64,000 nucleotides of DNA, taken from contig QZKM01000025.1 in assembly GCA_003599485.1 (NCBI GenBank), positions 2,577 to 66,576 of the forward strand, given 5' to 3'. Every line of letters begins with the position of its first letter. Position 1 is the first letter of the stretch. This DNA is from Gammaproteobacteria bacterium. GTDB taxonomy: Bacteria > Pseudomonadota > Gammaproteobacteria > SURF-13. The position numbers and the translations under genes are program-made. Positions 25,045 through 60,181 of this stretch are shown here, piece by piece. The notes below the pieces were generated by a model, which made no database searches, was not told where the DNA came from, and worked only from the letters and a program-made list of their open reading frames with translations.

Positions 25045-25593
25045 TCAGCCGGCAAGGTGGTGCTTGCCGACGGTCACCAATTTCGCTTGCGGCCCTTCCT
25101 CGCCCTGTTCTTCGATATACAACACCTCGGCGCCGATCTTCAGGTGGTCGAACGGCGGATGCACCGCGCTGTTGCGATGAAAATAAATCTGCTCGCCGTC
25201 CAGCGTTTCGATAAAACCGTAGCCCTCCTCCGGGAACAGTTTGATAACGCGCCCGTGGTGATGCTCCTCATGCGTCTTCACGTCGCTGCGCTGCTGGCGC
25301 GCGTAATCCTCCAATTGGCGGCCGGCGGCGTTAAACGCATCGCGCAGCGCCACGTACACATCCTCATCCGGCTGGCGGTTCACCGCGATCTCGCCGCCCG
25401 GCACGGTAATGTCAATGCGTACATTGTAGAGCTTGCCTTGATGATGATGTTTCTGGGGGATATCCACCACCACCCGGCAGCCCATGATGCGGTCATAAAA
25501 CGATTCCAGTTTTTGCACCTTTTGCCGGATACGCGCCTCCACGGCCGGTGAAGGGGGCATGTCGCGAAAGGTAATTTGCAGCGGAATCTGCAT
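25045..25593 (-). CDS. HPF/RaiA ribosome hibernation domain fused to a cold-shock domain
   Basis: MQIPLQITFR...YVALRDAFNAAGRQL (S30AE/HPF) followed by GYGFI...IYFH (CSD RNP1/RNP2). Confidence 0.88.
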   Translation of the reverse strand: MQIPLQITFRDMPPSPAVEARIRQKVQKLESFYDRIMGCRVVVDIPQKHHHQGKLYNVRIDITVPGGEIAVNRQPDEDVYVALRDAFNAAGRQLEDYARQQRSDVKTHEEHHHGRVIKLFPEEGYGFIETLDGEQIYFHRNSAVHPPFDHLKIGAEVLYIEEQGEEGPQAKLVTVGKHHLAG

Positions 25594-25650
25594 GGCGTCA
25601 CTCCTTGTTCTTGACGCGTTCACTTTAAGACGAAAAGACCTCGCCAATCT

Positions 25651-25664
25651 TTGATCTAGCGCAA
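25651..25664. promoter_or_regulatory. FNR-type box between hpf-csd and rtcA (divergent promoters)
   Basis: TTGATCTAGCGCAA; -10 TAAAGT (25627-25622, minus) and TAAAAT (25686-25691, plus) at class II spacing. Confidence 0.7.
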
Positions 25665-25696
25665 GGTTTGCATTTGGGTATTTTTTAAAATCCACT

Positions 25697-26728
25697 ATGC
25701 ATGAGATTGACGGTTCTTACGGGGAAGGCGGGGGACAGTTGGTCCGCACGGCGGTGGCGCTCTCCGCCATGACCGGCAAGGCGATTGCGCTGCATAATAT
25801 CCGCGCGCGGCGTCCCAGGCCCGGGCTCGCCGCCCAGCACCTCACCGCGGTGCGCGCGGTGGCGGCCTTGTGCCGCGCGGAAATCACCGGCCTGGAATTG
25901 GGCGCGCGCGAGTTCACCTTCCGCCCCGGCGGACTGCAGGGGGGGCATTTCGACTTCAACGTGGGTACGGCGGGGAGCGTAATCCTGGTTTTACAAGCGG
26001 CGCTGCCGGCCGCCTTTGCCTGCGGCGCGCCGATACACCTGCGCCTTACCGGCGGCACCGACGTCAAGGCCGCTCCACCCCTGGATTATTTCCGTTACGT
26101 GCTGTTGCCGCTGCTGGCGAAGATGGGGCTGTCCGTGAACGTCACCGTGCTGCGCCGCGGCTACTATCCGCGGGGCGGCGGCGAAATCGAGGTGTCACTG
26201 CCGCCGGTGAAAGAGTTGCGCCCGCTGTGTATGGACACGGCGGGCGCCGCGTATGAAATCGAGGGCATTATTCATACCGCCAATCTGCCCGGGCATATCG
26301 CCGAACGCATGCGGCAAGCGGCGCTACGCAAGCTGCAGGATTTTGGGAATACCCACATTGACTGCCAACGGCTGGGCCGCAACGAGGCCATGGGACAAGG
26401 CGGCGCCATTGTCCTCTGGGCGCGCACGCCTTGGGTGCTGCTGGGCGCGGCTGCCACCGCCGAGCGTGGCGTGCCCGCGGAACGCATCGGGGAGGAAGCC
26501 GCTCAGGCCCTGAGTGATGAAATCAGCGCCGGCGCGACGCTGGATATTCACGCCTCCGACCAGTTACTGATCTATCTCGCCCTGGCGCAGGGGGCGTCGC
26601 GCCTGCTGCTGCGCAACTTCACCCCGCACGCGCAAACCACGCTGTGGCTGCTGCGGCAATTTCTGCCGCTGCGCTTTCAAACCACGCAAAGAGGAGAGCT
26701 TACATGCCTGGACCTCATTCCGCGCTGA
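25697..26728 (+). CDS. rtcA: RNA 3'-terminal phosphate cyclase
   Basis: IDGSYGEGGGQLVRTA, RPRPGLAAQHL, GGTD, RGYYPRGGG, DIHASDQL. Confidence 0.96.
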   Translation: MHEIDGSYGEGGGQLVRTAVALSAMTGKAIALHNIRARRPRPGLAAQHLTAVRAVAALCRAEITGLELGAREFTFRPGGLQGGHFDFNVGTAGSVILVLQAALPAAFACGAPIHLRLTGGTDVKAAPPLDYFRYVLLPLLAKMGLSVNVTVLRRGYYPRGGGEIEVSLPPVKELRPLCMDTAGAAYEIEGIIHTANLPGHIAERMRQAALRKLQDFGNTHIDCQRLGRNEAMGQGGAIVLWARTPWVLLGAAATAERGVPAERIGEEAAQALSDEISAGATLDIHASDQLLIYLALAQGASRLLLRNFTPHAQTTLWLLRQFLPLRFQTTQRGELTCLDLIPR

Positions 26729-29300: not shown

Positions 29301-29305
29301 CAGAT

Positions 29306-29965
29306 TCAGGCCGTAGCGAACAGCGCCGCATCGCCTTGCAGGCTGTTTTTGTTATTACGCGCGCGCAGCATGGTCCAGTAATCGAAGAGATTGACCGGCG
29401 TTTGCTCAACAACATCGAGGCCGGTCTGATCCAGAAAATTTTCCAGGGAAAAATCCGGGCGGAAGCCCAGCAACCTGGACAGCGGCGCGATCAGCCGCTC
29501 CACGCCCCCTACCACGGGGTTGCTGTGCTGGAAGTGATTCACGATATACAGTTCGCCCTCCGGCCTGCATACGCGGCGCATTTCATCCACCAGGCGCGCG
29601 GGATGGGGCACCACGGAAGCCACATACATCGCCACCACCTTGTCGAAACTGTCATCGGCAAAACGCATCTGTTCCGCGTTCATCTTGTGCAATGCCGTGA
29701 CATGATGCAAACCCTCTCCTTCGACACGCGCCCTGGCGCGCGCCAGCATCTCGTCAGAAACGTCTATGCCGGTGACATGCACATCGCGCGGGTAAAGCGG
29801 CAGGGACAGCCCCGTTCCGACGCCCACTTCCAGGATGCGCTCTCCGGGCCGGCAGTTCATCTGCTCGATGACTGCGCGCCGCCCCGGCTCGAACAACGCG
29901 CCGAAATAAAAATCGTAACGCTGTGCGTAGCGCCGGTACACCTTCTCGACGGACTGTATATCCAT
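29306..29965 (-). CDS. Class I SAM methyltransferase, phospholipid N-methyltransferase (PmtA)-like
   Basis: YRRYAQRYD, LEVGVGTG, AMYVASVVP, IVNHF. Confidence 0.8.
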   Translation of the reverse strand: MDIQSVEKVYRRYAQRYDFYFGALFEPGRRAVIEQMNCRPGERILEVGVGTGLSLPLYPRDVHVTGIDVSDEMLARARARVEGEGLHHVTALHKMNAEQMRFADDSFDKVVAMYVASVVPHPARLVDEMRRVCRPEGELYIVNHFQHSNPVVGGVERLIAPLSRLLGFRPDFSLENFLDQTGLDVVEQTPVNLFDYWTMLRARNNKNSLQGDAALFATA

Positions 29966-30731: not shown

Positions 30732-30733
30732 CG

Positions 30734-32861: not shown

Positions 32862-33257
32862 TCACAGGCGCGGCGTCGCCTCGTGCGCGTAGGTCTTTTC
32901 ACGCTGGCTTTGACAGGTGAAGCAGCGTTTGGCGGTGGGATAGACGCTGAGCCGTTCGTAGCCGATGTCGCCGCCGCAATCAATACAGGCGCCGTAGCTC
33001 AAGTCGGCCAGGCGAAGCCATGCCGCCTCAATATCGCGTATTTCCTGTATCTGCCGGTCGAAAAGGGCGGCATCCATGTCCGCCAGCATGTCCGCGACGG
33101 ATTCATCGCCGATATCCAATACGCCGGAAACCAGATCGGCATAGTGTTTCTCTCCGGAGCGAATCAATTCCGCGCGTACTTCGTCACGCAGTTTGGTGAA
33201 ATTGTTGTTCAACAGTTGGCGCAGATTCTTCAACTGTGCGTTGGTCAAATTTGCCAT
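32862..33257 (-). CDS. DksA/TraR-family C4 zinc-finger protein
   Basis: Coiled coil with a DIGD tip, YGACIDCG...ERL...CFTCQ. Confidence 0.9.
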   Translation of the reverse strand: MANLTNAQLKNLRQLLNNNFTKLRDEVRAELIRSGEKHYADLVSGVLDIGDESVADMLADMDAALFDRQIQEIRDIEAAWLRLADLSYGACIDCGGDIGYERLSVYPTAKRCFTCQSQREKTYAHEATPRL

Positions 33258-33316: not shown

Positions 33317-33330
33317 TTGATGTAGATCAA
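33317..33330. promoter_or_regulatory. Perfect FNR box between dksA-like/nrdDG and dodecin (divergent promoters)
   Basis: TTGATGTAGATCAA; -10 TACACT (33353-33358, plus) and TATCTT (33293-33288, minus). Confidence 0.85.
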
Positions 33331-33394: not shown

Positions 33395-33598
33395 ATGCCG
33401 CATATACTGAAAGTGATAGAAGTGCTCGCCGAGTCGGATAAGAGCTGGGAGGACGCCGCCGCACAGGCCGTCACCCGCGCGGCCAAAACCCTGCACGGCA
33501 TCAAATCCATCTACATCAAGAATTTCGAGGCCAAGGTGGAAGGCGGCAAGATCATCGGCTACCGCATCAACGCGAATATTTCATTCGTGCTGGATTAG
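33395..33598 (+). CDS. Dodecin (flavin-binding)
   Basis: KVIEVLAESDKSWEDAA...YRINANISF; AAGGAGG RBS. Confidence 0.9.
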   Translation: MPHILKVIEVLAESDKSWEDAAAQAVTRAAKTLHGIKSIYIKNFEAKVEGGKIIGYRINANISFVLD

Positions 33599-33621: not shown

Positions 33622-34260
33622 TCAGCGGCCTTGCTTGCCCTCGCGCAGAATGGCGACCACCTCCTCGTCCTCCACCTGGGGAAAGTCGAGATAAAACTGC
33701 CCCACCGCCTGGAAATACTCCGGCGTGTGCAGGCAGATCACCTCGTCGGCGTAGCCGGCAACCCTGCGCAACGTACCGGGCGGCGCCACCGGCACGGCGG
33801 CGATCAATTTCTTCGGCTTCCTGGCGCGCAGCGCGTGCAGGGCTGAAATCATCGTCGCGCCCGTAGCCAGCCCGTCGTCCACCACGATTACGATACGGCC
33901 GTGCGGGTCCGCGGGGGGATGCACCGGGGTATATTGGGCACGGCGTTTGCGCATGGTCGCAAGCTGCGCCTGCTTCTCGCGTTCGATATATTCAGGAGTG
34001 GCGCCCGCGCTTTCGGCGTAGTCCGCGATATAGGTCCAGCCGCTTTCATCCACCGATCCGATGGCGAATTCGGGACTGCCCGGCGCACTGATTTTCCTGA
34101 CCAGCACCACGTCCATCTCGCCGCCCAACTCATCGGCGATCAGTTTCGCCATAGGCCCCGCGCCGCGCGGGATGGCGAGTATTAAAGGGTTCATGCCCCG
34201 GTAATGAGCGAGTTTCTCGGCAAGAAGCCGCGCGGCTTCACTGCGGTTTTTAAATATCAT
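33622..34260 (-). CDS. Type I phosphoribosyltransferase (Rv0571c/Rv2030c-like)
   Basis: FKNRSEA, AIPRG, VVDDGLATGAT, AVGQFY.DFPQV. Confidence 0.88.
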   Translation of the reverse strand: MIFKNRSEAARLLAEKLAHYRGMNPLILAIPRGAGPMAKLIADELGGEMDVVLVRKISAPGSPEFAIGSVDESGWTYIADYAESAGATPEYIEREKQAQLATMRKRRAQYTPVHPPADPHGRIVIVVDDGLATGATMISALHALRARKPKKLIAAVPVAPPGTLRRVAGYADEVICLHTPEYFQAVGQFYLDFPQVEDEEVVAILREGKQGR

Positions 34261-34295
34261 GTTATCCTCCTGTCAGGCTGACAAGGCGCACATCG

Positions 34296-35150
34296 TTACA
34301 GCACGCTGGCAAGCTGGCGGGTGATGCTGACCACACGCACCGCGCGTGGAACCGGAGTATCGAGTGTGTCGCTCACCAAAATCCCGTCTATCGGGGCCTT
34401 GGCCAGAATGGCGCGGCTCGGTGCAGAGAAGATCGCGTGCGTCGCGGCCACCGTAATAGACTTGGCGCCCTGTCGTTTCAACAGCGCCGCGGCGGAGGCG
34501 ATGGTGCGTCCGGTGTCTATCATGTCATCCACCATCAGCACCCTTTTCCCCGCTACCGGATAGCACGCCTCGCCGCGCGCGACGATATCGTGCCCAGGTC
34601 TCCGCTTGGGGATGGTGATGACGGGCAGGCCTTGCGCCACACTCTCCGCGCGCCGCCGCGCACCTTCATCGGGCGCGGCAACGATATCCGCTTTTTGCGC
34701 AACGCCGCGCCGCACCATGTCCGGCAGGCAAGTCAGCTCCGCATGGGGAGCCAGCACGGCGCGCAGCGCGGCGCTGTGCAGGTCCACAAACACCCTGCGC
34801 CGCGCGGGAATGCGGTTGACGATCCCAGCCATCATGCGCGCCAGCACCGCCTCGCCTTTTTCCGATTGACGATCCTGGCGGCTGTAGCCGAGATAGGGAA
34901 TGCACAGCGTGGCGATGGCGATACCGCTGTCCTGCAGGGCCTGCGCCAGCGCCAGCAGCTCAAACAACGAGTAAGGCGCGGGCGTGATGTTGCCCAGCAA
35001 TATGACCGGGGCGGGTTTTTTTGAAAATTCAAGCCGGAAATAATATTCACCGTCGGCGAATTGCCTGACTTCATAGTTCAACAGCCGGCAACGCTTATGG
35101 CGCGCGATTTTACGCGCCAGGCGCAGGCAATTTTTTGCCGCCAGTATCAC
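34296..35150 (-). CDS. Divergent ribose-phosphate pyrophosphokinase-like protein
   Basis: FADGE, PYLGYSRQDR, VDLH, APDEGA, VDDMIDTGRT, ATHAIF. Confidence 0.8.
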   Translation of the reverse strand: MILAAKNCLRLARKIARHKRCRLLNYEVRQFADGEYYFRLEFSKKPAPVILLGNITPAPYSLFELLALAQALQDSGIAIATLCIPYLGYSRQDRQSEKGEAVLARMMAGIVNRIPARRRVFVDLHSAALRAVLAPHAELTCLPDMVRRGVAQKADIVAAPDEGARRRAESVAQGLPVITIPKRRPGHDIVARGEACYPVAGKRVLMVDDMIDTGRTIASAAALLKRQGAKSITVAATHAIFSAPSRAILAKAPIDGILVSDTLDTPVPRAVRVVSITRQLASVL

Positions 35151-35162
35151 CGTTTGAACGCC

Positions 35163-36596
35163 TCAGCCTTTGACGCACGCCCTAGGGCGCAGGAAAGCGA
35201 CGCGCCGGGCGAGACCGGCCTTTTCCGTCGCCTCGGCCACCAGGTCCACGTCCTTATACGCGCCCGGCGCCTCTTCCGCCGCGCCGCGCATGGAACGGGT
35301 GCGGATCAGGATGCCGCGCTCTGCCAGCTCGTCAATCAGCTCGCGTCCGCGCCAATGACGCAGCGCCTGATGGCGGCTCATGGAACGCCCCGCCCCGTGG
35401 CTGGCGGAAGAGTAGGCCTTGATCTCGCTCTCCGCCGTGCCCGCCAGCACGTAGGAGCCGGTGCCCATGCTGCCGCCGATGATGACCGGCTGCCCTGTGT
35501 TGCGATAGCGTTCGGGAATGGCGGGGTGCCCGGGGCCGAAGGCGCGCGTCGCGCCCTTGCGGTGCACGTGCAGCATGCGCTGCCTGCCGTTCACTTTATG
35601 CTGCTCCACCTTGCAGGTGTTGTGCGATATATCAAACAGCGTTTCCAGCATGGCATCGGGCAGCACGCGCGCGAATACCTCGCGCGTGAGGTGCGTAAGG
35701 ATTTGGCGGTTGGCGAGCGCGCAATTGATGGCGGCGTTCATGGCGCCGATGTACTCTTGCCCTTCGGGCGACAGGATCGGCGCGCAGGCCAGTTCGCGAT
35801 CCGGCAGGGAAATTCCCAGACGCGCGGCGGCCTTGGCGAGCGAAACCAGATATTCGGTGCCGATCTGATGCCCCAGTCCGCGCGAGCCGCAGTGGATGGA
35901 CACCACGATCTGGCCTTCGCGCAGACCAAAAGCCTGCGCGGCCGGCTGGTCGTAAACACGTTCCACCACCTGCACCTCCAGATAGTGGTTGCCCGACCCC
36001 AGCGTGCCCATCTCGCCGCGCTGGCGCTTCTTGGCGTGATCCGAGACATTCTCCGCCACGGCGCCCGCCACGCAGCCGTTTTCTTCCACATAGTCCAGGT
36101 CTTCCGGCACGCCATAGCCCTGATTGACCGCCCATTGCGCGCCGCCTTGCAACACTTTATCCAGCTGCGCCGGGGCGAGCTTGAGCCGCCCTTCTTCGCC
36201 CACGCCCGCCGGGATAGTGTGATACAGGGCGTCGGCCAGGTCCTTTAACCTGGGCGTGACCGCGGGCAGATCGAGATTGGTGCGCAGACAACGGATGCCG
36301 CAGGAAATGTCGAAACCCACGCCGCCCGCGGAGATGATGCCGCCCTGCTCGGCGTCAAACGCCGCCACGCCGCCGATGGGGAAGCCATAACCCCAGTGCG
36401 CGTCCGGCATGGTCATCGCGGCGCCCACCAGACCGGGCAGCTTGGCGACGTTGGTGATCTGCTCCAGCACCTTATCGTCCATGCTGGCCAGCAGCGGCTC
36501 GCTGCCATACAGACATACCGGCGCGCGCTGCTCGCCGGCGGCGAGCGGCACGCTCCAGCGGTAGTCGTCTATTTTCTCCAAGCGCCGTATATCCAT
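35163..36596 (-). CDS. rtcB: RtcB RNA ligase (long, archaeal-like type)
   Basis: MPDAHWGYGFPIG, GFDISCG, GSGNHYLE, HCGSRG, SHN, HRKGAT, SHGAGR, EEAPGAYK. Confidence 0.96.
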   Translation of the reverse strand: MDIRRLEKIDDYRWSVPLAAGEQRAPVCLYGSEPLLASMDDKVLEQITNVAKLPGLVGAAMTMPDAHWGYGFPIGGVAAFDAEQGGIISAGGVGFDISCGIRCLRTNLDLPAVTPRLKDLADALYHTIPAGVGEEGRLKLAPAQLDKVLQGGAQWAVNQGYGVPEDLDYVEENGCVAGAVAENVSDHAKKRQRGEMGTLGSGNHYLEVQVVERVYDQPAAQAFGLREGQIVVSIHCGSRGLGHQIGTEYLVSLAKAAARLGISLPDRELACAPILSPEGQEYIGAMNAAINCALANRQILTHLTREVFARVLPDAMLETLFDISHNTCKVEQHKVNGRQRMLHVHRKGATRAFGPGHPAIPERYRNTGQPVIIGGSMGTGSYVLAGTAESEIKAYSSASHGAGRSMSRHQALRHWRGRELIDELAERGILIRTRSMRGAAEEAPGAYKDVDLVAEATEKAGLARRVAFLRPRACVKG

Positions 36597-36605
36597 ATGC
36601 GTTTT

Positions 36606-37052: not shown

Positions 37053-37066
37053 TTGATCTAGCGCAA
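37053..37066. promoter_or_regulatory. FNR-type box between archease-rtcB and hypC (divergent genes)
   Basis: TTGATCTAGCGCAA, identical to the box at 25651; -10 TAGGGT (37029-37024, minus). Confidence 0.7.
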
Positions 37067-48162: not shown

Positions 48163-48663
48163 TTAGTCATTCCATATGGCCGCCGTCTCCAGTGCAGCGC
48201 TGCGCGGACGGGGGTCGCGTAACCATGCTGTTATCTTGGCGCAGGCGGCTTCGGTCCATTGGGGAAGATAGCGCTCCACCATGAAGGTGGTATCCTCCGG
48301 CCGGATAGGGCCGATCTCCAGGCCCAGCAGACACAAACGCTCCGGCATGGCGTCGAGCGACCGCGCCAGCGCCACGCATTCCGCCACGCCCAGGTTGTGG
48401 CTCGACAAGGCGGCGTCCGCCAGGCGCGCGATCCCGTCTCCTTCCAGGTAATAGAGGCTGCCCTCCTCGCCCGCGCCGCGCACGGCGTCGAGCAGCAACA
48501 CGCTGTCCTCCTTGCGCCAGTGTTCGAGCAGCGCCGGGCCGGGGCGGTCCAGCACGCTCACCTCGACGAGTTGATCATCAAACAAGCCGCGCAAGGCCCG
48601 CGCCACCAGCCAGCCTGTCTGATCGTCACCCCACGGTGAACCGAGACCGATGACGCGGATCAT
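48163..48663 (-). CDS. Hydrogenase maturation endopeptidase
   Basis: VIGLGSPWGDD, LLDAV, SSH; ATG overlaps the large-subunit stop. Confidence 0.88.
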   Translation of the reverse strand: MIRVIGLGSPWGDDQTGWLVARALRGLFDDQLVEVSVLDRPGPALLEHWRKEDSVLLLDAVRGAGEEGSLYYLEGDGIARLADAALSSHNLGVAECVALARSLDAMPERLCLLGLEIGPIRPEDTTFMVERYLPQWTEAACAKITAWLRDPRPRSAALETAAIWND

Positions 48664-49949: not shown

Positions 49950-49964
49950 ATAAGGACTGACGGC

Positions 49965-52448
49965 TTACCCTCCCTCATTTTCCTCATCGTCGTCTTCTCC
50001 ATTTTTCTGCTTCCCGCCCTTCGCACCTTCGCCGAACTCCTGACGCAGCAGCGCAAGTTCATATAATTTCACCGCGACCAGATAATTGACGGTGCCCGGC
50101 GGCAGCTTGCCCTCCTTGTCAGGCGCGCCGGCGGCCACACCCGTCAGCATCTCTATCGCCTGATCTATGGTCTCGACCGGATAAATATGGAACTGCCCCG
50201 CCGCCGCAGCCTGCACCACGTCCTCGCGCAGCATCAGGTTTTTCACATTCGAGACGGGTATCAGCACCCCTTGGCTGCCGGCCAGGCCGCGCGCCTTGCA
50301 GACATCGAAAAATCCCTCGATCTTGTCGTTCACCGCGCCTATCGCCTGCACCTGGCCGAATTGATTCACCGAGCCGGTCACGGCCAGGGACTGCTTGACC
50401 GGAATCCCGGCCAGGCTGGACAGCAGCGCGCACAGTTCGGCGAGTGAAGCGCTGTCGCCCTCGACCATGCCGTACGATTGCTCAAACACCAGGCTCGCAG
50501 TGAGCGACAGCGGCCTGTCCTTGGAGTAACGCGCGGCCAGGAACGACGACAGGATCAACACGCCCTTGGAATGGATGGCGCCGGAGAGCTTCACCTCGCG
50601 TTCGATGTTGATGAACTCGCCCTCGCCCAGGCGGGTCGTGGCGGTGATGCGCGTCGGCTGGGCGAAGCTGTGCGCGCCAAGCTCCAGCACGGAAAGCCCG
50701 TTGACCTGTCCGACTGACGTTCCCTGGGTGTCAATCAGCAGCGTGCCGCGCAGGATTTCTTCCTGCACTTCGGCCTTCAAGCGCCCGCCGCGGTGGCGCT
50801 CCGCCTCGATGGCCCGCTGCACATCCGCCACCGCGACGTTTTCGCGCCCCGCCTCGCGCGCCCAGTAATCCGCTTCACGCATCACGTCCGCGACCCGCTG
50901 CATGTGGGTGGACAGCTTTTCCGCGTCCTCGACGACGCGCGCGCTGTGCTCGATGACCCGCGCCACCGCGCCGCGCTCAAACGGCAGCATATTTTCCTTG
51001 CGCGCCAGGGTGGCGATCATCCTGGCGTAGAGCAGATGATTTTCCGCGCTGCGCTCCAGCGTCTCCTCGAAATCCGCCGCGACCTTGAACAGCTCGCTGA
51101 ATTCCGGATCATATTCATACAGCAGATAGTAAAACAGCCTGTCGCCGAACAGGACGATCTTTACCTCCAGCGGAATGGGTTCCGGCTCCAGTGACACCGT
51201 GCTGATCAGGCTGTACATCTGCCCCAGTGATTCGATGCGGATTTCGCGCGCATAGAGAGCGCGCTTGAGCGATTCCCATACGAAGGGCTGGGATAACACC
51301 TTGTGTATGTCGAGCAATAGATAGCCGCCGTTGGCGCGGTGCAGCGAGCCGGGCTTGATCAGGGTAAACTCCGTCACCAGCGCGCCGAATTGCGCGCTGT
51401 GCTCGATGCGCCCGATCAGGTTGTTATAGGCGGGATTGTCATCGCTGACCACGGGCGCGCCCTGGGTGGCGCTGTGATCCACCAGCACATTCACCTGGTA
51501 ACGATGCAGGGAGGGCCGCTCCGTGACGGTCAAGCCCAGCAGCGTGACGGGCGGCTCCTCGCGGCGGCGGAAATCCTCCACGTTCTCGATCACATCCTGT
51601 TCCACGGCGGAAAAATATTCCTGCAGCGCGGGCAGCTGCGTGTATTTCTCGCGCAGCTCGTCTATCAGGTGACCCACGGCGTGCATGGTGACTTCCCGGT
51701 CCAGGGCCTTGATTTTCTCGCGCCGCTCCCTGCGCCACTGCGTGACCTGGCGGATCACGCCCTGCAAGCGCTCCTGAAAGACGCTCACCAGCTTTTCCAC
51801 GCGCTCCTTTTCCCGGTCCGGAAGTTTGTCGTATTCCTCCGGGCCGATCACCTCGTTATCGCGCACCGGCGCGAAGGCAAAGCCGCCCGGTGTGCGCAGC
51901 AGCGCTATGCCCTGCTGCATCGCCTCATTGCCCAGCCCGTCGAGCGCCTGCTCCTGGCGTTCATTGAACGCCTTTTTTATTTCCTCGACCTTGCGGCGGT
52001 ATTCCTCGCTGTCAAACGCGGCGGGTATGGCGCTGCGCAGTTCCTCCACCAGCTGCATCATGTCCTGGCGCAGCTTGACGGCCTGCCCCGCGGGCAGACG
52101 CAGCGCGCGTGGTTTGTGGGGCTGCTCGAAGTTGTTTACGTAACACCAGTCGGAAGGCGGCGCCTCCTGCCTGGCGCGCGCCTCCAGATGGCCGCGCACA
52201 AAGGTGTGTTTGCCCATGCCCGGTGAACCGAGCACGAAAATATTGTAGCCGCTGCGGCGCATGCCGGCGCCGAAACGCACCGCGCCCAGCGCACGCGCCT
52301 GGCCGATGATTTCCGCCAAATCCTCAAGTTCGACGGTGGTCTGGAAGGCGAGTTGATCCAGGGCGCAGGGATGGTAAAGCGCCGCGGAGTCGAGGGACTT
52401 TATACTGTTCGCCGTCATATCCATACGCGTTGATTTCCTTTCGTTCAT
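49965..52448 (-). CDS. Lon-like (LonB/LonC-type) AAA protease, S16 family
   Basis: IGQ.RA, GSPGMGK, GSLHRANGGYL, HSKG, Ser motif EGDSAS, Lys motif VNDKIEGFF; ATGA overlap with the delta-subunit stop. Confidence 0.9.
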   Translation of the reverse strand: MNERKSTRMDMTANSIKSLDSAALYHPCALDQLAFQTTVELEDLAEIIGQARALGAVRFGAGMRRSGYNIFVLGSPGMGKHTFVRGHLEARARQEAPPSDWCYVNNFEQPHKPRALRLPAGQAVKLRQDMMQLVEELRSAIPAAFDSEEYRRKVEEIKKAFNERQEQALDGLGNEAMQQGIALLRTPGGFAFAPVRDNEVIGPEEYDKLPDREKERVEKLVSVFQERLQGVIRQVTQWRRERREKIKALDREVTMHAVGHLIDELREKYTQLPALQEYFSAVEQDVIENVEDFRRREEPPVTLLGLTVTERPSLHRYQVNVLVDHSATQGAPVVSDDNPAYNNLIGRIEHSAQFGALVTEFTLIKPGSLHRANGGYLLLDIHKVLSQPFVWESLKRALYAREIRIESLGQMYSLISTVSLEPEPIPLEVKIVLFGDRLFYYLLYEYDPEFSELFKVAADFEETLERSAENHLLYARMIATLARKENMLPFERGAVARVIEHSARVVEDAEKLSTHMQRVADVMREADYWAREAGRENVAVADVQRAIEAERHRGGRLKAEVQEEILRGTLLIDTQGTSVGQVNGLSVLELGAHSFAQPTRITATTRLGEGEFINIEREVKLSGAIHSKGVLILSSFLAARYSKDRPLSLTASLVFEQSYGMVEGDSASLAELCALLSSLAGIPVKQSLAVTGSVNQFGQVQAIGAVNDKIEGFFDVCKARGLAGSQGVLIPVSNVKNLMLREDVVQAAAAGQFHIYPVETIDQAIEMLTGVAAGAPDKEGKLPPGTVNYLVAVKLYELALLRQEFGEGAKGGKQKNGEDDDEENEGG

Positions 52449-53218
52449 TTTTCCCAAGCCTGCGCGCCCGCGCGGAAGGCGGGCGCCCATCCGTTGATGA
52501 ACCGCAACCGGCGCACGACGTCTTCATCGGAAAGGCCCAGCTCACGGAAGCGCCGCCCCAGCGCCAGCGTGTTGCCATCTTCCTGCGGCCCGAAGCAGCC
52601 GTAACAATCTCGCTCATAGCGCGGACACAGCGCGCCGCAACCGGTGCGCGTCACCGGCCCCAGGCACGGTTCGCCCTTGGCCACCAGCACGCACACGTGG
52701 CCCGCGCGTTTGCACTCCAGGCACACCGATTCGCCGGGTATGCGCGGAGCCACGCGCGCCAGCAAGTCACTGAGCACGCGCTTTAATTGCCGCTGATCTA
52801 TGGGGCAACCCCACAGTTCCGCGTCTACCTTGACGTGTTCCGAGACGGGCGTGGAGCGCGCGAGGCTGTCTATATACTCGGGCCGGGCGTAAATCGCGCG
52901 CACAAATTCGTCATGATCTTTCCAATTGCGCAACGCCTGCAAACCGCCCGCGGTGGCGCACGCGCCGATGGTGATGAGCAGCCGGCTTGCGGCGCGTATC
53001 TCACGGATGCGCTGCAAATCGGCAGACGTTGAGATCGAGCCTTCCACGAAAGATACATCATAAGGGCCCGGCTGCGTCACACTGGAAGCCTCGGTGAAAT
53101 GCGCGATCTCCGCCCGGCTTGCCAGGGTGAGTAAATCCTGCTCCAGATTCAAAAACTGAATCTGGCAGCCATCGCAGGAGGCGAACTTGTGCACCGCGAT
53201 GCGCAGTCTCCCGGTCAT
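52445..53218 (-). CDS. Group 3b hydrogenase small (delta) subunit
   Basis: KFASCDGCQ, EGS, GACA, GCP, C-terminal Cys cluster. Confidence 0.92.
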   Translation of the reverse strand: MTGRLRIAVHKFASCDGCQIQFLNLEQDLLTLASRAEIAHFTEASSVTQPGPYDVSFVEGSISTSADLQRIREIRAASRLLITIGACATAGGLQALRNWKDHDEFVRAIYARPEYIDSLARSTPVSEHVKVDAELWGCPIDQRQLKRVLSDLLARVAPRIPGESVCLECKRAGHVCVLVAKGEPCLGPVTRTGCGALCPRYERDCYGCFGPQEDGNTLALGRRFRELGLSDEDVVRRLRFINGWAPAFRAGAQAWEK

Positions 53219-53219
53219 G

Positions 53220-54071
53220 TTAAAGCCCCTTTACCGCCAGCAGCGCACTCACTTCTGTGTAGGAAAATACCGGGCCGTCCTTGCAGATGAATTTTCCGCC
53301 GAACATGCAATGGCCGCAATGCCCCACGGCGCACTGCATGTTGCGCTCCAGGGACAGATAAATATCCGCCGGCGCCATGCCCCGGCGCAGCAGATTTTCC
53401 GCCACCGCGCGCATCATCGGCTCCGGCCCGCACATCATGGCGACGCCCTTAAACATCTCCGGGGCTATGTCCTCCAGCGTCTGCGTCACCTGGCCCACGC
53501 GTCCGCGCCACTCCGGCGTGCCCTTGTCGGCGGTCAGCAGCACCTGGGTGTCCGGCGCGGCGCACCAGCTCTGGATGCGCTCGCCGTAAATGAGGTCGCC
53601 GGGGTGCTTCACGCCGTGGCACAGCGTGAGCGCGCCGTACGACTCGCGGCGCTGCAACGCGTAATGAATCATGGAAGTGGTGGGCGCGCAGCCCAGGCCG
53701 CCGGTGATCAACAGCAGGCTGCGCCCGCGCGCCGCCTCCACCGGCCAGCCGCGTCCGAACGGGCCGCGCAGCCCCAGTGCATCGCCCGCCTTGAGCCGCT
53801 GTAACCCTTGAGTGACGCGCCCGACGGCGCGGATGGTATGGTCTATCAGTCCGGGATCGTCGGGGTCGGAAACGATCGAGATCGCCACCTCGCCCACGCC
53901 GTACAGATACAGCATGTTGAACTGGCCGGGCTGAAAACGGTACGCTGCGCGCGCGCCAGCATCACTCAGACGCAGGCGCAAGGTGAAAATATCACGCCCC
54001 TCCTCCACCCGCTCGACCACCTGCGCCGCATGCGGCAAATAAGGATTGCGGGACCATGCAACGGCGTTCAT
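53220..54071 (-). CDS. Group 3b hydrogenase gamma subunit (FAD/NAD(P)-binding, 2Fe-2S)
   Basis: PGQFNML, RGPFG, GGLG, CGPE, ERNMQCAVGHCGHC...CKDGPVF. Confidence 0.92.
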   Translation of the reverse strand: MNAVAWSRNPYLPHAAQVVERVEEGRDIFTLRLRLSDAGARAAYRFQPGQFNMLYLYGVGEVAISIVSDPDDPGLIDHTIRAVGRVTQGLQRLKAGDALGLRGPFGRGWPVEAARGRSLLLITGGLGCAPTTSMIHYALQRRESYGALTLCHGVKHPGDLIYGERIQSWCAAPDTQVLLTADKGTPEWRGRVGQVTQTLEDIAPEMFKGVAMMCGPEPMMRAVAENLLRRGMAPADIYLSLERNMQCAVGHCGHCMFGGKFICKDGPVFSYTEVSALLAVKGL

Positions 54072-55213
54072 GTCTTTGCCTCGGGTTGGGCGCCGTGCCT
54101 GCGCCGTAGCGCGGCGGGCAGGCGGATGGCGTTCACTTCCTCGATCAAATCTATGCCGGTGGGACACCAGGTAATGCAGCGCCCGCAACCCACACAGCCG
54201 CTGACGCCGAACTGCTCGATCCATGCGGCGAGCTTGTGCGTGAGCCATTGACGGTAGCGGTGGCGAATCTGCGGGCGGATCTGCGCGCCATGCAGATAGC
54301 CGTGTTCCAGGGTGAAACACGAATCCCACTGACGCTGATGCCCGCTCTCCTTCCCGTCCAGCGAGGCGACATCCGTCTCCCGGTGACAAAAACAGGTGGG
54401 ACACACCAGGGTGCAGTTGCCGCACGACAGGCAGCGCTCCGCCACATCATCCCAGCGCGGATGCTCAAGATTATTAAACAGCAGCGCCTGGATATTTTCA
54501 GTATCCAGGCGGCGCGTTTGGCTGCGCGCGGCGGCATCTATCGCCTGCGCCGCCTGCGTGATCTCTCCCTCATGCGCGGGCTGCAAGGGCAGATCGGCCA
54601 GCACCGCCTCGCCCGCCGCGCTGCCTGCCCCCACTAAAAAGGCGTCTTCCAGTTCCGTAAGCGCGATGTCATAACCTTCGCGCGCGCGCGGGCCGGTATT
54701 CATCGAGGCGCAAAAACAGGTGGCCGCGGAGCGCGTGCAGTGCACCGCGACGATAAACAGATTTTCACGCCGCGTGGCGTAATAGGGATCGCTGAAATCG
54801 TTGTACCGGCCTTTGAGGAAGGTGCGGTCCTGCACCGACACTCCGGCAAGATCGCAGGCGCGCGCGCCGATCACGGCGAGAGGCCTTATCTCCGGCAGCG
54901 TCTCTTTAAAACGCACTTCGCCGTTTTGCTCCACCGTCCACAGGGTTTCCTGCGGGGCGAACAGAAAACGCTTCAGCGACTCCGGGCCGTGCACGTAATC
55001 GAACAGGCGTCCGTTCCCGGAATCTTCCAGCCGGTAACGGCCCGGCTCCTGCACGCTGACCAGTCCCACGGGCAACTCGTCGGCGCGGCTGACTTCATCA
55101 TAAACAATGGCCCCGCTCTTCGCGCGCGGGCCCACCACGCGGTAACCGCGCGCGCGCAGTGTTTGGATCAAGACATCAAGCTGGTCCCGCTTCAGCAGCC
55201 CCGCCACGGACAT
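54068..55213 (-). CDS. Group 3b hydrogenase beta subunit (4Fe-4S)
   Basis: RACD, CLSCGNCTLVCPTCFC, CVGCGRCITWCP; ATG at 55213 after GAAGGGAG. Confidence 0.92.
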   Translation of the reverse strand: MSVAGLLKRDQLDVLIQTLRARGYRVVGPRAKSGAIVYDEVSRADELPVGLVSVQEPGRYRLEDSGNGRLFDYVHGPESLKRFLFAPQETLWTVEQNGEVRFKETLPEIRPLAVIGARACDLAGVSVQDRTFLKGRYNDFSDPYYATRRENLFIVAVHCTRSAATCFCASMNTGPRAREGYDIALTELEDAFLVGAGSAAGEAVLADLPLQPAHEGEITQAAQAIDAAARSQTRRLDTENIQALLFNNLEHPRWDDVAERCLSCGNCTLVCPTCFCHRETDVASLDGKESGHQRQWDSCFTLEHGYLHGAQIRPQIRHRYRQWLTHKLAAWIEQFGVSGCVGCGRCITWCPTGIDLIEEVNAIRLPAALRRRHGAQPEAKT

Positions 55214-55265: not shown

Positions 55266-55279
55266 CTGATCTATATCAA
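55266..55279 (-). promoter_or_regulatory. FNR-type box upstream of the hydrogenase structural operon
   Basis: Minus strand TTGATATAGATCAG; -10 TATGCT at 55244-55239. Confidence 0.8.
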
Positions 55280-57587: not shown

Positions 57588-57631
57588 GAAGCCTCCTTCT
57601 CTCTGCCTTATCCGGCGCGGACGGGAGCGCG

Positions 57632-59416
57632 TCAGAAAACCTCTTCCCAGCTTTTGCTCAACCGCATGGCGGAATTGATAAGCCCCACCATGCTGTAGGT
57701 CTGGGGAAAGTTCCCCCACAGCCTGCGGCTGGCGGGGTCAATGTCTTCCGAGAGCAAGCCCAGCGGATTGCGGCAGGCGAGCAGCGTATCGAACAGCGCG
57801 CGCGCCTCCTCGCGGCGGCCCAGGGCCGCAAGGGCGTCAATGTACCAGAACGTGCAGACCACGAACGCCGTCTGCGGCTCGCCGAAGTCGTCCTTATGCG
57901 TGTAGCGGAAGATGAAATCACCCCGCTTGAGGCGCCGCTCGACCGCCGCTACCGTGCCGGCGAAGCGCGGATCGTCCGCGGCCAGAAACCCGATCTCATG
58001 CAACAGCAGCAGGCTCGCGTCGAGCTCTTTGCCGCCGAAACTCTCCACGAAACTCTGCTGCTTCGCATCCCAGGCATTCTCGCACACCGTGCGGTGGATA
58101 ACGTCCGCATGCCCGCGCCAATAGTGGGCACGGTCGTTGAGGCCGAGGCGCGTGGCGATGCGCGCCAGGCGGTCGCAGGCGACCCAGCACATGACGCTGG
58201 AGAAAGTGTGAATGCGCGTGGCGTTGCGCAGTTCCCAAACGCCCGCGTCAGGCTGGCGGTACACCGCGCGCGCCATCTCCCCCAGCGCCTCGAGACGCCG
58301 GAACAGGCCTTCGTTGCCGGGGCGGTCAAGACGCTCGTCGAAGAACATGTGGGTTGCGGACAGAATCACCGAGCCGTACACGTCGTTCTGCACCTGCCGG
58401 TACGCGGCATTGCCGGTGCGCACCGGCCCCATGCCCAGATAGCCGGGAAGGCTGGCTATGACGGATTCATCGAGATCAACGTGGCCGCTGACGCCGTACA
58501 CCGGCTGCAGGCGTCCGCCCCTCATGTTCGCGGCGATGTTCACGATGTAGTGCAGGTAACGCTCCATGGTGCGCGTCACACTCAGGCGATTCAGCGCGGC
58601 GACCACAAAATAGCTGTCACGCAGCCAGCAATAGCGGTAATCCCAATTGCGCCCGCTGTCCGGCGCCTCCGGCAGCGAGGTCGTCATGGCGGCGACCATG
58701 GCCCCGGTGTCATCGAAGGCGGCGAGCTTGATCGTGATCGCCGCGCGAATCACCGCCTCCTGCCACTCAAACGGGATGCCGAGGAATCGCACCCAATCCT
58801 GCCAGTAGTTGCGCGTCTCCCCGAAAAACCGCTGGCCGATTTCCCCCGGGGCTTCCGGGACGGTCTCGTCCGGCCCGATCATCAGGGTGGCGTCACGCTC
58901 GAGCACAAACGGCGTCTGCTCCAGCACCGCCGTGATCGAAACGTCGGTGGTAAGACGCAGCACCAGCTGGGGTGAAACATAGCGGATGTGATTGCTGCCA
59001 AAAGTCAGTATCGGAACCCCCGCCCCGTAGTCGTGGACAGGCTCCAGGCGAATGCGGATCACCGGGCTGCCGGAGAGGGGCCGCACGCGCCGCACGATCA
59101 TCATGGGACAGAACGTGCGTCCGAACTGGCTGAAGCGCGGGGCGAAATCGGTAATCTCCACCGCTCCACCCGTCTGATCGTAGAGTGTCGTCACCAGAAT
59201 GGCGGTATTCCGCAGATAATGCTGCTCAGCGCGCGCAAAATCCTGGATCTCAATGGCGAACGCGCCGCGGCCATCCTGCTGGGTGTTTCGAAGCAGGGCG
59301 CAAAACACGGGGTCGCCATCGAAGCGCGGCATACAGGACCACACAATCCGCGCCTGCGGATCAACCAGGGCGCTGATGCTGCAATTGCCAATCAGCCCAA
59401 GCTCCAGATTGTCCAT
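57632..59416 (-). CDS. Glycoside hydrolase family 15 (trehalase/glucoamylase-like)
   Basis: AAMTTSLPE, RNWDYRYCWLRD, WELR, GLLSED, GNFPQTYS. Confidence 0.92.
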   Translation of the reverse strand: MDNLELGLIGNCSISALVDPQARIVWSCMPRFDGDPVFCALLRNTQQDGRGAFAIEIQDFARAEQHYLRNTAILVTTLYDQTGGAVEITDFAPRFSQFGRTFCPMMIVRRVRPLSGSPVIRIRLEPVHDYGAGVPILTFGSNHIRYVSPQLVLRLTTDVSITAVLEQTPFVLERDATLMIGPDETVPEAPGEIGQRFFGETRNYWQDWVRFLGIPFEWQEAVIRAAITIKLAAFDDTGAMVAAMTTSLPEAPDSGRNWDYRYCWLRDSYFVVAALNRLSVTRTMERYLHYIVNIAANMRGGRLQPVYGVSGHVDLDESVIASLPGYLGMGPVRTGNAAYRQVQNDVYGSVILSATHMFFDERLDRPGNEGLFRRLEALGEMARAVYRQPDAGVWELRNATRIHTFSSVMCWVACDRLARIATRLGLNDRAHYWRGHADVIHRTVCENAWDAKQQSFVESFGGKELDASLLLLHEIGFLAADDPRFAGTVAAVERRLKRGDFIFRYTHKDDFGEPQTAFVVCTFWYIDALAALGRREEARALFDTLLACRNPLGLLSEDIDPASRRLWGNFPQTYSMVGLINSAMRLSKSWEEVF

Positions 59417-59431
59417 GGTCCAGTCCTCGTG

Positions 59432-60181
59432 TCACTGCGTTGCAAACCGCTGTACGTAACAGTCAAGCCAGGTCAGCACCTGTATGGCATCGGCGAGCCG
59501 CCAGCGCGCCGCCGTCGGCCCCGCGCCGACCTTGATCGAATGGCCACCCATACGGTTGACGACGGCGAAGCCGTCCTCGTCGGTGATGTCGTCGCCCGCA
59601 AAAACCGGTACGCGCCCGGCGAATGGCGGCTCGCGCATGAATTCGGCGATTGCCCGCCCCTTGTCCCAGCCGCGCGGCCGGATCTCGAAAACCATGTTGC
59701 CCGATCCCAGCACAAAGCCGTCGCCGAGTTTCCGCAACGCCTCGCGCGATGCCCGTCCGGCCTCGGCTTTCAGGTGCGGCGCGGCGCGATAGTGCAGCGC
59801 CAGGGTCAGTCCCTTGTCCTCCAGCAATATCCCGTGGTGATTGCGCGCCCACGCCAGAAGATACGAGCGCGCCTGACCGATCGCTGCCTCGGTGACCACG
59901 GCGCGGTGCACCTGTCCGTCAGCGGCGCGGCGCTCGGCGCCGTGCTGACCGGCCGCCGGCAGTTTGAGCGGCGCGAACAGCCGGTCCAGCGCCGCAATCG
60001 GCCGTCCGCTGATCAGCGCCACAGGCGCCGTTCGCTGCAACGCGGCCAGCGTACCGGTCAGTCCCGACCTGAGTTTGACGTCATCGGGGTGCTCGGCGAT
60101 GTCGAGCAGCGTACCGTCAACATCGAGAAAGAAGGCCTCATTCCGATCCAGTACCGGTAGACGGTCCAGCAATGTTTCCAC
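59432..60181 (-). CDS. otsB: Trehalose-6-phosphate phosphatase
   Basis: FLDVDGTL, ISGR, GQHGAE, ALHYR, GDDITDEDGF; start approximate (GTG 60181 or TTG 60172). Confidence 0.92.
   Translation of the reverse strand: METLLDRLPVLDRNEAFFLDVDGTLLDIAEHPDDVKLRSGLTGTLAALQRTAPVALISGRPIAALDRLFAPLKLPAAGQHGAERRAADGQVHRAVVTEAAIGQARSYLLAWARNHHGILLEDKGLTLALHYRAAPHLKAEAGRASREALRKLGDGFVLGSGNMVFEIRPRGWDKGRAIAEFMREPPFAGRVPVFAGDDITDEDGFAVVNRMGGHSIKVGAGPTAARWRLADAIQVLTWLDCYVQRFATQ

Follow-up and report, generated by a model that had tools for sequence, protein, structure and literature searches.

Ribosome-hibernation, RNA-repair, and hydrogenase genes behind five FNR-type boxes in a reduced gammaproteobacterial genome

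Described low-oxygen regulons and the present locus

The systems closest to the locus described here are the lxa locus of Burkholderia cenocepacia J2315, the DosR regulon of mycobacteria, and the classical FNR/Anr regulons of Escherichia coli and Pseudomonas aeruginosa. The locus itself is a gene block at positions 25045 to 60181 of a 64,000-nt stretch of contig C5 (C5:2577-66576; this whole stretch is called the window, and its G+C content is ~62%) from an uncultured gammaproteobacterium, streamlined and apparently aerobic, whose genome (here G000) comprises 1.69 Mb in 50 contigs and is 95.9% complete. Within 30 kb of the block, five FNR-type boxes serve eight transcription units, which encode, among others, HPFcold (a hibernation-promoting factor whose C-terminal part is a cold-shock domain, CSD), the RNA-repair proteins RtcA and RtcB-archease, an anaerobic ribonucleotide reductase (RNR), Hsp20, and a group 3b [NiFe] hydrogenase. 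These units probably belong to an anoxia-survival programme under the genome's single FNR.

In the lxa locus, 50 genes are induced by low oxygen, an Anr/Fnr-like inverted repeat recurs at 17 intergenic points, with more sites elsewhere in the genome, and the locus is required for anoxic survival, not for growth; its authors draw the comparison with the DosR regulon and cite Anr as controlling universal stress proteins (USPs) and survival genes in the context of P. aeruginosa (Sass et al. 2013; PMC3721108, as for all statements on lxa below, which extend to the parts of that paper available to us). This betaproteobacterial locus shares with the present system an arrangement of adjacent units behind an Anr/Fnr-like motif that recurs at other loci of the genome, and a set of functions consisting of Hsp20, an oxygen-independent RNR, acetate kinase, a metal-dependent RNase, and a protease. 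In the available account, lxa is dominated by USPs, polyhydroxyalkanoate synthesis, alcohol dehydrogenases, and transporters, and it has Anr-like regulators of its own; multiple USPs form its core, whereas none is boxed in G000. The RNR is of class III in the G000 block and of class II in lxa, the host genomes measure 1.7 and 8 Mb, respectively, and the available lxa account yielded none of HPFcold, RtcA, RtcB-archease, Prs/phosphoribosyltransferase (PRT), dodecin, or the group 3b hydrogenase with its maturation proteins, all of which are present in the G000 block. A sequence-only reading of this DNA had proposed a DosR-like hypoxia module in a proteobacterium: its sites and gene content hold, but such a module was already in print for a betaproteobacterium in the form of lxa.

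For the DosR regulon, the available parts of the literature list RtcB (Rv2631), a PRT protein (Rv0571c), a B12-dependent RNR (Rv0570), and a ribosome factor (Rv0079) (PMC5309233), and in Mycobacterium smegmatis DosR induces the group 3b hydrogenase Hyh, which is, together with a flavin-sequestering protein, among the most induced proteins (bioRxiv 10.1101/2023.09.11.557286). The gene-by-gene comparison with DosR drawn in the sequence-only reading stands for these members and for Hyh, while otsB1, nrdZ by that name, Rv2030c, and Rv2630 as archease were not confirmed by the same partial sources. The likeness to the block is at family level only (Hsp20, HPF family with Rv0079, RtcB, PRT, alternative RNR, and group 3b hydrogenase), to which dodecin would add a functional analogue of the M. 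smegmatis flavin-sequestering protein, as far as the available part of the preprint describes the latter. The two systems differ in the class of their RNR and in their regulator: a [4Fe-4S] FNR acting on single palindromes in G000 versus a NarL-type response regulator, haem kinases, and tandem Dev boxes in the DosR system. Unlike in the DosR regulon, we saw no nitroreductases, triacylglycerol synthase, or boxed USPs in the G000 block, and the trehalose genes are adjacent to it, unboxed. Because its sites are FNR palindromes, the block is an analogue of the DosR regulon and not a member of it. The hypoxia-response factor Hrp1 is a CBS-domain protein, and a CBS-pair protein is encoded in a second FNR island of G000 (see below). 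Hrp1 is also mentioned in the Balon paper.

The classical FNR/Anr regulons share with G000 the TTGAT-N4-ATCAA site, the class II promoter geometry, and a sensor with a cysteine-ligated cluster, and nrdDG is among their targets. Unlike in those regulons, none of the listed G000 boxes with -10 spacing lies at terminal-oxidase or anaerobic-respiration genes. In E. coli, rtcBA is an inducible RNA-repair pair under RtcR and sigma-54, whereas in G000 rtcA and rtcB lie in separate FNR-boxed units, rtcB being grouped with archease, prs, and PRT. HPFcold has a solved structure in Coxiella burnetii (CBU_0020), showing the CSD bound to the anti-Shine-Dalgarno 3′ end of 16S rRNA (bioRxiv 10.1101/2025.11.08.686982, available part). 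The G000 protein has the same two-domain architecture and full-length similarity, and its gene shares an FNR-boxed divergent promoter region with rtcA in a predicted hypoxia block, whereas the available part of that preprint describes no regulation of the C. burnetii gene. RtcB has also been noted as a ribosome-repair neighbour of hibernation genes (PMC10901736).

What is new here is the content, namely HPFcold, RtcA and RtcB-archease, and a Lon-like protease embedded in a group 3b hydrogenase operon; the logic is already known. As predicted from its sites, the G000 regulon is given over to maintenance to an unusual degree, and the genome that holds it is reduced. To our knowledge, control of RtcB by FNR has not been described, and a literature search that did not cover subscription-only papers and supplements found no paper tying FNR or Anr to RtcB or archease.

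FNR boxes, promoter spacing, and the regulator

FNR-type sites were ranked genome-wide with a position weight matrix (PWM) trained on nine sites, all of them outside the window. The boxes of the block are as follows.

Box 1: 25651..25664, TTGATCTAGCGCAA, in the divergent promoters of HPFcold and rtcA, PWM rank 20.
Box 2: 33317..33330, perfect, TTGATGTAGATCAA, in the divergent promoters of dksA-nrdDG and dodecin, PWM rank 11.
Box 3: 37053..37066, TTGATCTAGCGCAA, between archease and hypC, PWM rank 30.
Box 4: 48116..48129, perfect, TTGATATAGATCAA, in the promoter of hsp20 and the E1 alpha and beta genes, PWM rank 3.
Box 5: 55266..55279, CTGATCTATATCAA, in the promoter of the hydrogenase operon, PWM rank 14.

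All five are present exactly where the sequence-only reading had placed them; two match TTGAT-N4-ATCAA perfectly, one has one mismatch, and two have two. They are all intergenic once start codons are refined by a combined coding, ribosome-binding site (RBS), and start-codon score plus reading of the sequence, which corrected four starts (HPF to ATG 25593, archease to ATG 37013, hypC to ATG 37142 [MCLAIP...], and hyhB to ATG 55213 instead of 55243). The block occupies 2.08% of the genome and holds 5 of the top 30 PWM sites (0.62 expected; P = 3.6e-4); the genome-wide scan and enrichment test that had been proposed for this block thus find it enriched. Perfect TTGAT-N4-ATCAA sites number 13 in the genome, 9 of them in intergenic DNA, which amounts to 14.8% of the sequence (P = 1.4e-5), and sites with two mismatches number 697. 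Within the window, TTGATNNNNATCAA at up to two mismatches has 34 matches versus 13.4 ± 3.9 in shuffled sequence, a count reached in 0 of 100 shuffles; a refined pattern proposed earlier has 8 window matches versus 0.32 expected, a circular comparison, because that pattern was derived from these very sites.

Approximately 24 to 27 of the 34 block genes lie in co-directional units headed by a box. PWM scores of the five boxes range from 15.6 to 25.0, compared with at most 5.4 upstream of the cyclopropane-fatty-acid synthase-like (CFAS) gene, the methyltransferase gene, mazG/hypF, the M90 peptidase gene, LonC, and otsB; the scan upstream of otsB agrees with the earlier remark that the trehalose genes have no visible box. 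CFAS and the neighbouring geranylgeranyl-reductase gene are probably driven by a promoter of their own. Two further sites, at 33506 (PWM score of 16.3, within dodecin) and at 31422 (within nrdD), were treated as non-functional.

A TAnnnT hexamer starts 28.5 to 31.5 nt from the box centre on seven of the eight promoter sides, and on both sides of the boxes at 25651 and 33317: HPF (TAAAGT, 30.5 nt), rtcA (TAAAAT, 28.5), dksA (TATCTT, 30.5), dodecin (TACACT, 29.5), archease (TAGGGT, 30.5), hsp20 (TACTTT, 31.5), and hyhB (TATGCT, 28.5). With a chance of such a hexamer per side of 0.037 (random intergenic centres) or 0.052 (centres 40 to 75 nt upstream of starts), the probability of at least seven of eight lies between 7e-10 and 8e-9. 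Genome-wide, 23 of the 78 promoter sides that have a box with at most two mismatches carry TAnnnT at this distance, versus 1, 5, 5, 8, and 0 in five control offset windows on the same sides, so the spacing is a property of the organism's FNR-type promoters beyond the block alone. The count of seven sides at ~28 to 32 nt given in the sequence-only reading was reproduced exactly, and the class II FNR geometry read from it fits the block sides as well as the genome-wide excess. Activating class II promoters have this layout, a -41.5-type spacing to the -10 and no visible -35. The eighth side, that of hypC, has its -10 element (TAGAAT or TAAAAT) 47.5 nt from the box centre in three genomes of the genus of G000 and (TAATAT) 58.5 nt from it in three genomes of another genus. 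This shift of 11 bp is one helical turn, which leaves the box on the same helix face, as expected for positions near -61 and -71, which we take to be FNR class I positions.

A profile search with HTH_Crp_2 finds one match in the whole genome; at 96% completeness, there may be a second Crp/Fnr member elsewhere. The protein (244 aa, on contig C4) has cysteines arranged as C19-x2-C22-x5-C28 plus a central one within 'STVCEVPF', and its recognition helix reads ETVSR. Among solved structures, the FNR entries 5e44/5cvr come closest (E = 6e-60), with these cysteines and helix residues aligned; FixK2 is also among its matches in the PDB. Since the canonical FNR residues are present and aligned to solved FNR, the earlier supposition of an FNR-family regulator encoded elsewhere is borne out, and by the sole Crp/Fnr protein found, with FNR cysteines and an E--SR helix.

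Boxed promoters are not confined to the block. A second island, on contig C8 between 24.9 and 54.9 kb, has five boxes within 30 kb:

C8, between a beta-CASP RNase gene and a hydrolase gene.
C8, between an ABC1 kinase gene and a DUF1451-DJ-1/PfpI-CBS-PolX-DUF72-Memo unit.
C8, between an alpha-glucan phosphorylase-acetate kinase unit and a phosphoketolase gene.
C8, at the gene for Cpn60.
C8, at the gene for a DUF302 protein.

Further boxes stand at a second hsp20 gene next to fnr (C4), between mtnA and an OmpA-family gene (C6), at a response-regulator-PAS-GGDEF-EAL gene (C21), and, less certainly, at a glycogen phosphorylase gene (C25). Contrary to the earlier claim, the survival genes are not clustered in one locus, since boxed promoters are at least as numerous in the second island and the single sites together. 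In the genome-wide listing, no FNR box with -10 spacing stands at the cbb3-like oxidase, complex I, or the tandem-USP gene, so the predicted regulon consists almost purely of maintenance, repair, and storage-glucan fermentation. The tandem-USP gene (C23) is the only one in the genome, and the block encodes no Usp domain.

Partial genomic hints of an aerobic host that survives anoxia without growth come from NuoG, a distant cbb3-like oxidase, and three molybdopterin proteins, none of which scored above the cut-off for NarG or NapA, in a search that covered respiration genes only in part. The oxidase, at C17:17817-20204, is the sole full-length haem-copper oxidase found, and it scores 237 bits for CcoN (cut-off of 583) and 70 bits for CcoO (cut-off of 201) against NCBIfam profiles; it may be a divergent C-family member. 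Two short CcoN-like fragments lie near it.

Conservation was followed in a family sample of 20 genomes including G000 (9 of them ≥90% complete; G001, G002, and G003 are congeners of G000) by asking for a box with at most two mismatches within 330 nt upstream in relatives in which the orthologous promoter is present. The whole gene order is retained in G001 and G002, seven further genomes retain parts, and the order archease-rtcB-prs-PRT is kept in G001, G002, G007, G009, and others. A box is conserved upstream of dksA and dodecin in 5/5 relatives each, upstream of archease in 8/9, and upstream of hsp20 in 5/5 (all perfect and all with a -10), compared with 0/4, 0/8, and 0/3 for the control promoters of CFAS, PRT, and M90. 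At dksA/dodecin, the box and the dksA -10 (TATCTT) are kept in G001, G002, G007, and G013, although the spacer has diverged; the box of G009 has one mismatch. Box 1 is conserved in G001 and G002 only, and box 5 is conserved in G002, left as a scar in G003, and not found in six other relatives. From this pattern, three boxes (dksA/dodecin, archease/hypC, and hsp20) are old, and two are genus-specific or fast-evolving; the expectation that boxes be kept in orthologous promoters therefore holds across genera for three and within the genus only for HPF/rtcA and hyhB.

The genes also co-occur with the regulator. Seven of the nine genomes that are ≥90% complete have FNR (G000, G001, G007, G009, G010, G013, and G014), and all seven have RtcB and HyhL, with NrdD at least partial in six; in the FNR-less G004 and G016, we found no RtcB, HyhL, NrdD, or phosphoketolase. 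FNR, RtcB, HyhL, NrdD, and HPF are thus present together or jointly missing in the family, in keeping with the co-occurrence expected earlier. One genus is mixed for the package, which implies at least one separate gain or loss. Congener G003 (82% complete) keeps FNR and phosphoketolase, but its block is deleted: the locus (C4:12001-32000) reads M48, RNase T, HPF, CFAS, geranylgeranyl reductase, methyltransferase, hyhB remnant, tRNA, queA, tgt, the scars being an HPF that stops after 92 codons and has no CSD, 56 codons of hyhB, and the box CTGATCTATATCAA. This deletion and its scars mark the set as a dispensable accessory package. CFAS and the geranylgeranyl reductase survive in G003, where rtcA is gone.

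Anoxia survival and competing readings

We regard it as probable that the five boxes are sites of the genome's single FNR, that the eight units are activated at low oxygen, and that together they form an anoxia-survival programme; given the sites, spacing, regulator, conservation, and co-occurrence observed, we infer that FNR acts in response to oxygen, activates the units instead of repressing them, and serves the physiological roles given below. On a drop in oxygen, a [4Fe-4S]-FNR dimer would form, bind the boxes, centred near -41.5, and recruit RNA polymerase, activating all eight units, seven of them via class II contact and the hypCABD-RNase Z unit probably from a class I position near -61. 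HPFcold would then park ribosomes and shield the 3′ end of 16S rRNA; RtcA, RtcB-archease, and RNase Z would heal broken RNAs; Prs, PRT, and NrdDG would supply phosphoribosyl pyrophosphate and nucleotides or deoxynucleotides (dNTPs) without oxygen; two Hsp20s, the Lon-like protease, and Cpn60 would hold or clear proteins; and dodecin would store flavin. The second island would allow storage glucan to be fermented via phosphoketolase and acetate kinase, yielding ATP, and the group 3b hydrogenase, with its Hyp maturation proteins co-regulated, would vent surplus reductant as H2.

Several observations weigh against this account. The right half of boxes 1 and 3 is weak (GCGCAA), these boxes come no higher than 20th and 30th, the hypC side has no class II -10, and 7 of the 34 block genes (mazG, hypF, hypE, M90, otsB, GH15, and otsA) are unboxed. 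The HPF box is found in 2/5 relatives, the rtcA box in 2/3, and the hyhB box in 1/7 (at most one mismatch; one more relative has a two-mismatch site without a -10), and the positives at HPF/rtcA and hyhB are all congeners, whose intergenic DNA is generally alike. The co-occurrence counts overstate their support because related genomes are not independent, and the intergenic counts are only approximate because the genome-wide gene calls came from a heuristic of our own. A search for sequencing runs that contain this stretch listed 14 DNA-type holders and no RNA holder, a blank that counts neither way. Finally, NrdDG implies DNA synthesis in anoxia, which fits growth as much as persistence; the term 'dormancy' used in the sequence-only reading is overstated on this count.

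The same FNR regulon could indeed serve fermentative anaerobic growth, in a facultative anaerobe replicating in anoxia: NrdDG would provide dNTPs, phosphoketolase and acetate kinase ATP, and the hydrogenase redox balance, while HPF, chaperones, and RNA repair would be general stress cover. The class III RNR and its activase in a boxed operon, a complete glucan-to-acetate route behind FNR boxes, and pyruvate dehydrogenase (PDH)-type E1 genes behind the hsp20 box all fit such a life. We nevertheless consider it unlikely, given that storage glucan is the sole FNR-wired carbon source (two phosphorylases), that HPFcold and two Hsp20s suggest translational shutdown, that none of the listed -10-spaced boxes lies at respiratory or biosynthetic operons, and that the block is dispensable (deleted in G003, its markers not found in G004 and G016), although slow growth may be compatible with all of these points.

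It is much less probable that an FNR-type protein binds the boxes but answers to a signal other than oxygen (e.g., NO or redox state) or represses at some of the sites. Other signals are indeed sensed by Crp/Fnr relatives that share the TTGAT-N4-ATCAA site, FixK2 among the PDB matches being one such relative, and sites overlapping divergent promoters are able to repress one side; however, the four FNR cluster cysteines are in place, a single member of the family was found in the genome, and the spacing is that of the textbook activating layout. That the boxes arose as palindromes by chance in AT-rich intergenic DNA, with no regulatory role, is scarcely credible: two of the five do have two mismatches, and such sites are common (697, as above), but the -10 spacing on seven of eight sides (P ~1e-8), the top-30 ranks of all five under an independent PWM, the retention of boxes across genera while flanks diverge, and the presence of the regulator speak otherwise.

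Alongside the anoxia-survival reading, we put forward a tentative and rather doubtful extension of it, in which part of the block is a portable, cross-phyla module for the preservation of RNA and ribosomes, wired independently to the oxygen or redox sensor of each host, with rtcA and archease-rtcB mRNAs that are leaderless. Its members would be archease-RtcB, PRT (Prs being optional), an HPF-family factor, Hsp20, and a Lon-like protease, and its sensor would be FNR in G000 and, by analogy, DosR in mycobacteria. In a survey of 80 RtcB loci from many phyla, the archease-rtcB pairing is nearly universal, and PRT lies within 10 kb of RtcB in 15 cases, HPFcold in 13, Hsp20 in 8, and a Lon-like protease in 4; the loci include Nitrosospira/Nitrosovibrio isolates and a Thermoleophilia (actinobacterial) metagenome-assembled genome (MAG) with Hsp20 and PRT. 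An FNR-like box (at most one mismatch, within 250 nt) stands at 10 of 72 archease promoters versus ~1.6 expected (P = 5e-6).

As for leaderless transcripts, the distance from box centre to ATG is 39.5 nt for rtcA, 46.5 nt for archease, 44.5 nt for the beta-CASP RNase gene (C8:24915), and 42.5 nt for the Cpn60 gene (C8:42738), which places the predicted transcription start 0 to 5 nt from the ATG in all four, and none has a Shine-Dalgarno sequence. On this spacing, the rtcA mRNA is predicted to be leaderless or nearly so, and at archease the distance is 44 to 46 nt in five relatives from two genera; a distance of 51 to 200 nt from box to ATG in three other relatives and in distant loci counts against the idea. 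If leaderless, rtcA and archease-rtcB could stay translated once cleavage, or masking by HPFcold, has put the anti-Shine-Dalgarno end of 16S rRNA out of reach. The possibly leaderless mRNAs of these RNA-repair genes adjoin the gene for a hibernation factor whose CSD would mask that same end. Were such a preservation module real, reversible RNA cleavage and religation would be a core requirement for anoxia survival.

How streamlined, non-fermenting environmental bacteria endure anoxia is poorly known beyond mycobacteria, Pseudomonas, and Burkholderia. The predicted regulon of this uncultured bacterium is compact, near-pure in its maintenance functions, and contained in a 1.7-Mb genome, and in one promoter set it would link oxygen sensing to HPFcold, to RtcA/RtcB-archease, and to an H2-evolving group 3b hydrogenase. 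The package behaves as an ecological accessory trait: sister genomes have both regulator and package or neither, and one congener has FNR with the block deleted. It also supports regarding the 'DosR-like' gene set as a general solution that recurs under different regulators.

Genes of the block

Gene identities were assigned by Pfam and NCBIfam profile matches, which agree with the names in the sequence-only reading; genes absent from that reading are those for the Lon-like protease, the MazG-like protein, the S-adenosylmethionine (SAM)-dependent methyltransferase, HypFE, the M90 peptidase, the CFAS-like protein, and the geranylgeranyl-reductase-family protein. Coordinates refer to the window.

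25045..25593, minus strand: HPFcold, S30AE plus C-terminal CSD (Pfam PF02482 and PF00313); AAGGAG RBS before ATG 25593.
25697..26728, plus: rtcA, RNA 3′-phosphate cyclase (Pfam RTC and RTC_insert).
26878-28176, plus: CFAS-like (profile matches); no FNR box.
28182-29300, plus: geranylgeranyl-reductase-family flavoprotein (profile matches); no FNR box.
29306..29965, minus: SAM-dependent methyltransferase (Pfam Methyltransf_11/25), downstream of nrdG and co-directional.
30042-30947 (open reading frame, ORF), minus: nrdG activase (Radical_SAM and Fer4_12); real start probably near the nrdD stop.
30734-32821, minus: nrdD, class III anaerobic RNR (Pfam NRDD and ATP-cone).
32862..33257, minus: DksA/TraR-type zinc-finger protein (Pfam zf-dskA_traR; DksA-like NCBIfam matches below cut-off), heading the dksA-nrdD-nrdG unit.
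33395..33598, plus: dodecin, flavin-binding storage protein (Pfam Dodecin); GGAGG RBS before ATG 33395.
33622-34260, minus: PRT-domain protein (Pfam Pribosyltran).
34296-35150, minus: prs (Pribosyltran_N/Pribosyl_synth; reaches the NCBIfam ribP_PPkin cut-off).
35163-36596, minus: rtcB (Pfam RtcB).
36606-37013, minus: archease (Pfam Archease), heading the operon archease-rtcB-prs-PRT (33622..37013).
37142-37387, plus: hypC (Pfam HupF_HypC).
37380-37766, plus: hypA (Pfam HypA).
37759-38538, plus: hypB (Pfam cobW).
38535-39641, plus: hypD (Pfam HypD).
39676-40695, plus: RNase Z (NCBIfam NF002558 ribonuclease Z, 467 bits versus a cut-off of 315).
40681..41094, minus: MazG-like nucleotide pyrophosphohydrolase (Pfam MazG); no FNR box.
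41140 or 41218 to 43437, plus: hypF; no FNR box.
43416-44441, plus: hypE; no FNR box.
44508 or 44586 to 45281, plus: M90 peptidase; no FNR box.
45305-46348, minus: PDH-type E1 beta (Transket_pyr/Transketolase_C; NF006667 above cut-off).
46345-47322, minus: PDH-type E1 alpha (E1_dh; TIGR03182 above cut-off).
47398-47895, minus: hsp20 (Pfam HSP20); ATG 47895 behind the RBS GAAGGAGG.
47950..48071: 122-nt member of a dispersed intergenic repeat family within the hsp20 5′ leader (by alignment); absent in G001 and G002.
48163..55213, minus: group 3b [NiFe] hydrogenase operon (Pfam), comprising the next six genes.
48163-48711, minus: HycI-like endopeptidase.
48660-49949, minus: hyhL (NiFeSe_Hases).
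49965-52424, minus: Lon-like protease, 819 aa (AAA_32, LonB_AAA-LID, LonC_helical, and Lon_C).
52445-53218, minus: hyhS (Oxidored_q6).
53220-54425 (ORF), minus: hyhG (FAD_binding_6/NAD_binding_1/DHODB_Fe-S_bind).
54068-55213, minus: hyhB (Fer4_22).
55299-57536, minus: otsA-like, with an N-terminal extension of ~260 aa; no FNR box.
57632-59416, minus: GH15 trehalase-like (Pfam, NCBIfam); no FNR box.
59432-60181, minus: otsB (Pfam, NCBIfam); no FNR box.
60203-60289, minus: tRNA-Leu(CAA) (ARAGORN, Rfam), at the right edge of the block.

HPFcold matches PDB 9t0z chain 9, 'Ribosome hibernation promoting factor', over its full length (residues 1-174; E = 5.6e-56). G004 (no FNR found, 100% complete) and G013 encode an HPF of ~111 to 114 codons without a CSD; in both (2784-3189 of the G004 locus on C25 and 2911-3315 of the G013 locus), this short HPF is followed by a perfect TTGAT-N4-ATCAA box. 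The rtcA and rtcB units lie ~9 kb apart, and the nearest named relatives of RtcB (76 to 79% identity) are from Gallionellaceae, Sulfurimicrobium, Nitrosomonadaceae, and other Burkholderiales-type MAGs. Sigma-70-like matches occur ahead of CFAS (26729-26757) and at 41161-41133, weak hints of separate CFAS and mazG promoters. Generic scans of the first half of the window stayed near expectation for promoters (7 versus 6.0 in shuffles) and for terminators (23 versus 20.4). Three plus-strand ORFs without a Pfam match were set aside: those at 29231-30241 and 40702-41139, where the minus-strand genes for the SAM-dependent methyltransferase and the MazG-like protein lie, and that at 40143-41087, where the actual gene is RNase Z on the same strand.

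The hydrogenase has four subunits (Fe-S beta, FAD/NAD(P) gamma, small delta, and large alpha, by Pfam), and it is assigned to group 3b because its large subunit is closest, among solved structures, to the alpha subunits of sulfhydrogenase I and a cytosolic NiFe hydrogenase (E ~1e-65, PDB search). The Lon-like gene also lies between hyhS and hyhL in G002, G007, G013, and G014, whereas G009 and G010 lack it there, and in G007 and G014 it has a one-mismatch FNR box of its own between hyhS and lon. Homologues of this protease occur near RtcB/HPFcold in Nitrosovibrio and other loci.

The repeat family represented in the hsp20 leader is hairpin-rich and ~115 nt long, with many copies of 78 to 84% identity on ~20 other contigs, one of them close to where the second hsp20 (C4) has its FNR boxes. 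A SAM-III match in the same leader, sub-threshold under a permissive Rfam scan (E = 0.23), was rejected; over the whole window, the tRNA is the only Rfam match. In the OtsA-like protein, the GT20 domain begins at residue 263 of 745, and the extension ahead of it has no Pfam or NCBIfam match. The tRNA-Leu(CAA) gene sits exactly between otsB and queA-tgt, and the block has been rearranged around this point, since in G007 its HPF-PGA_cap end joins queA-tgt directly.

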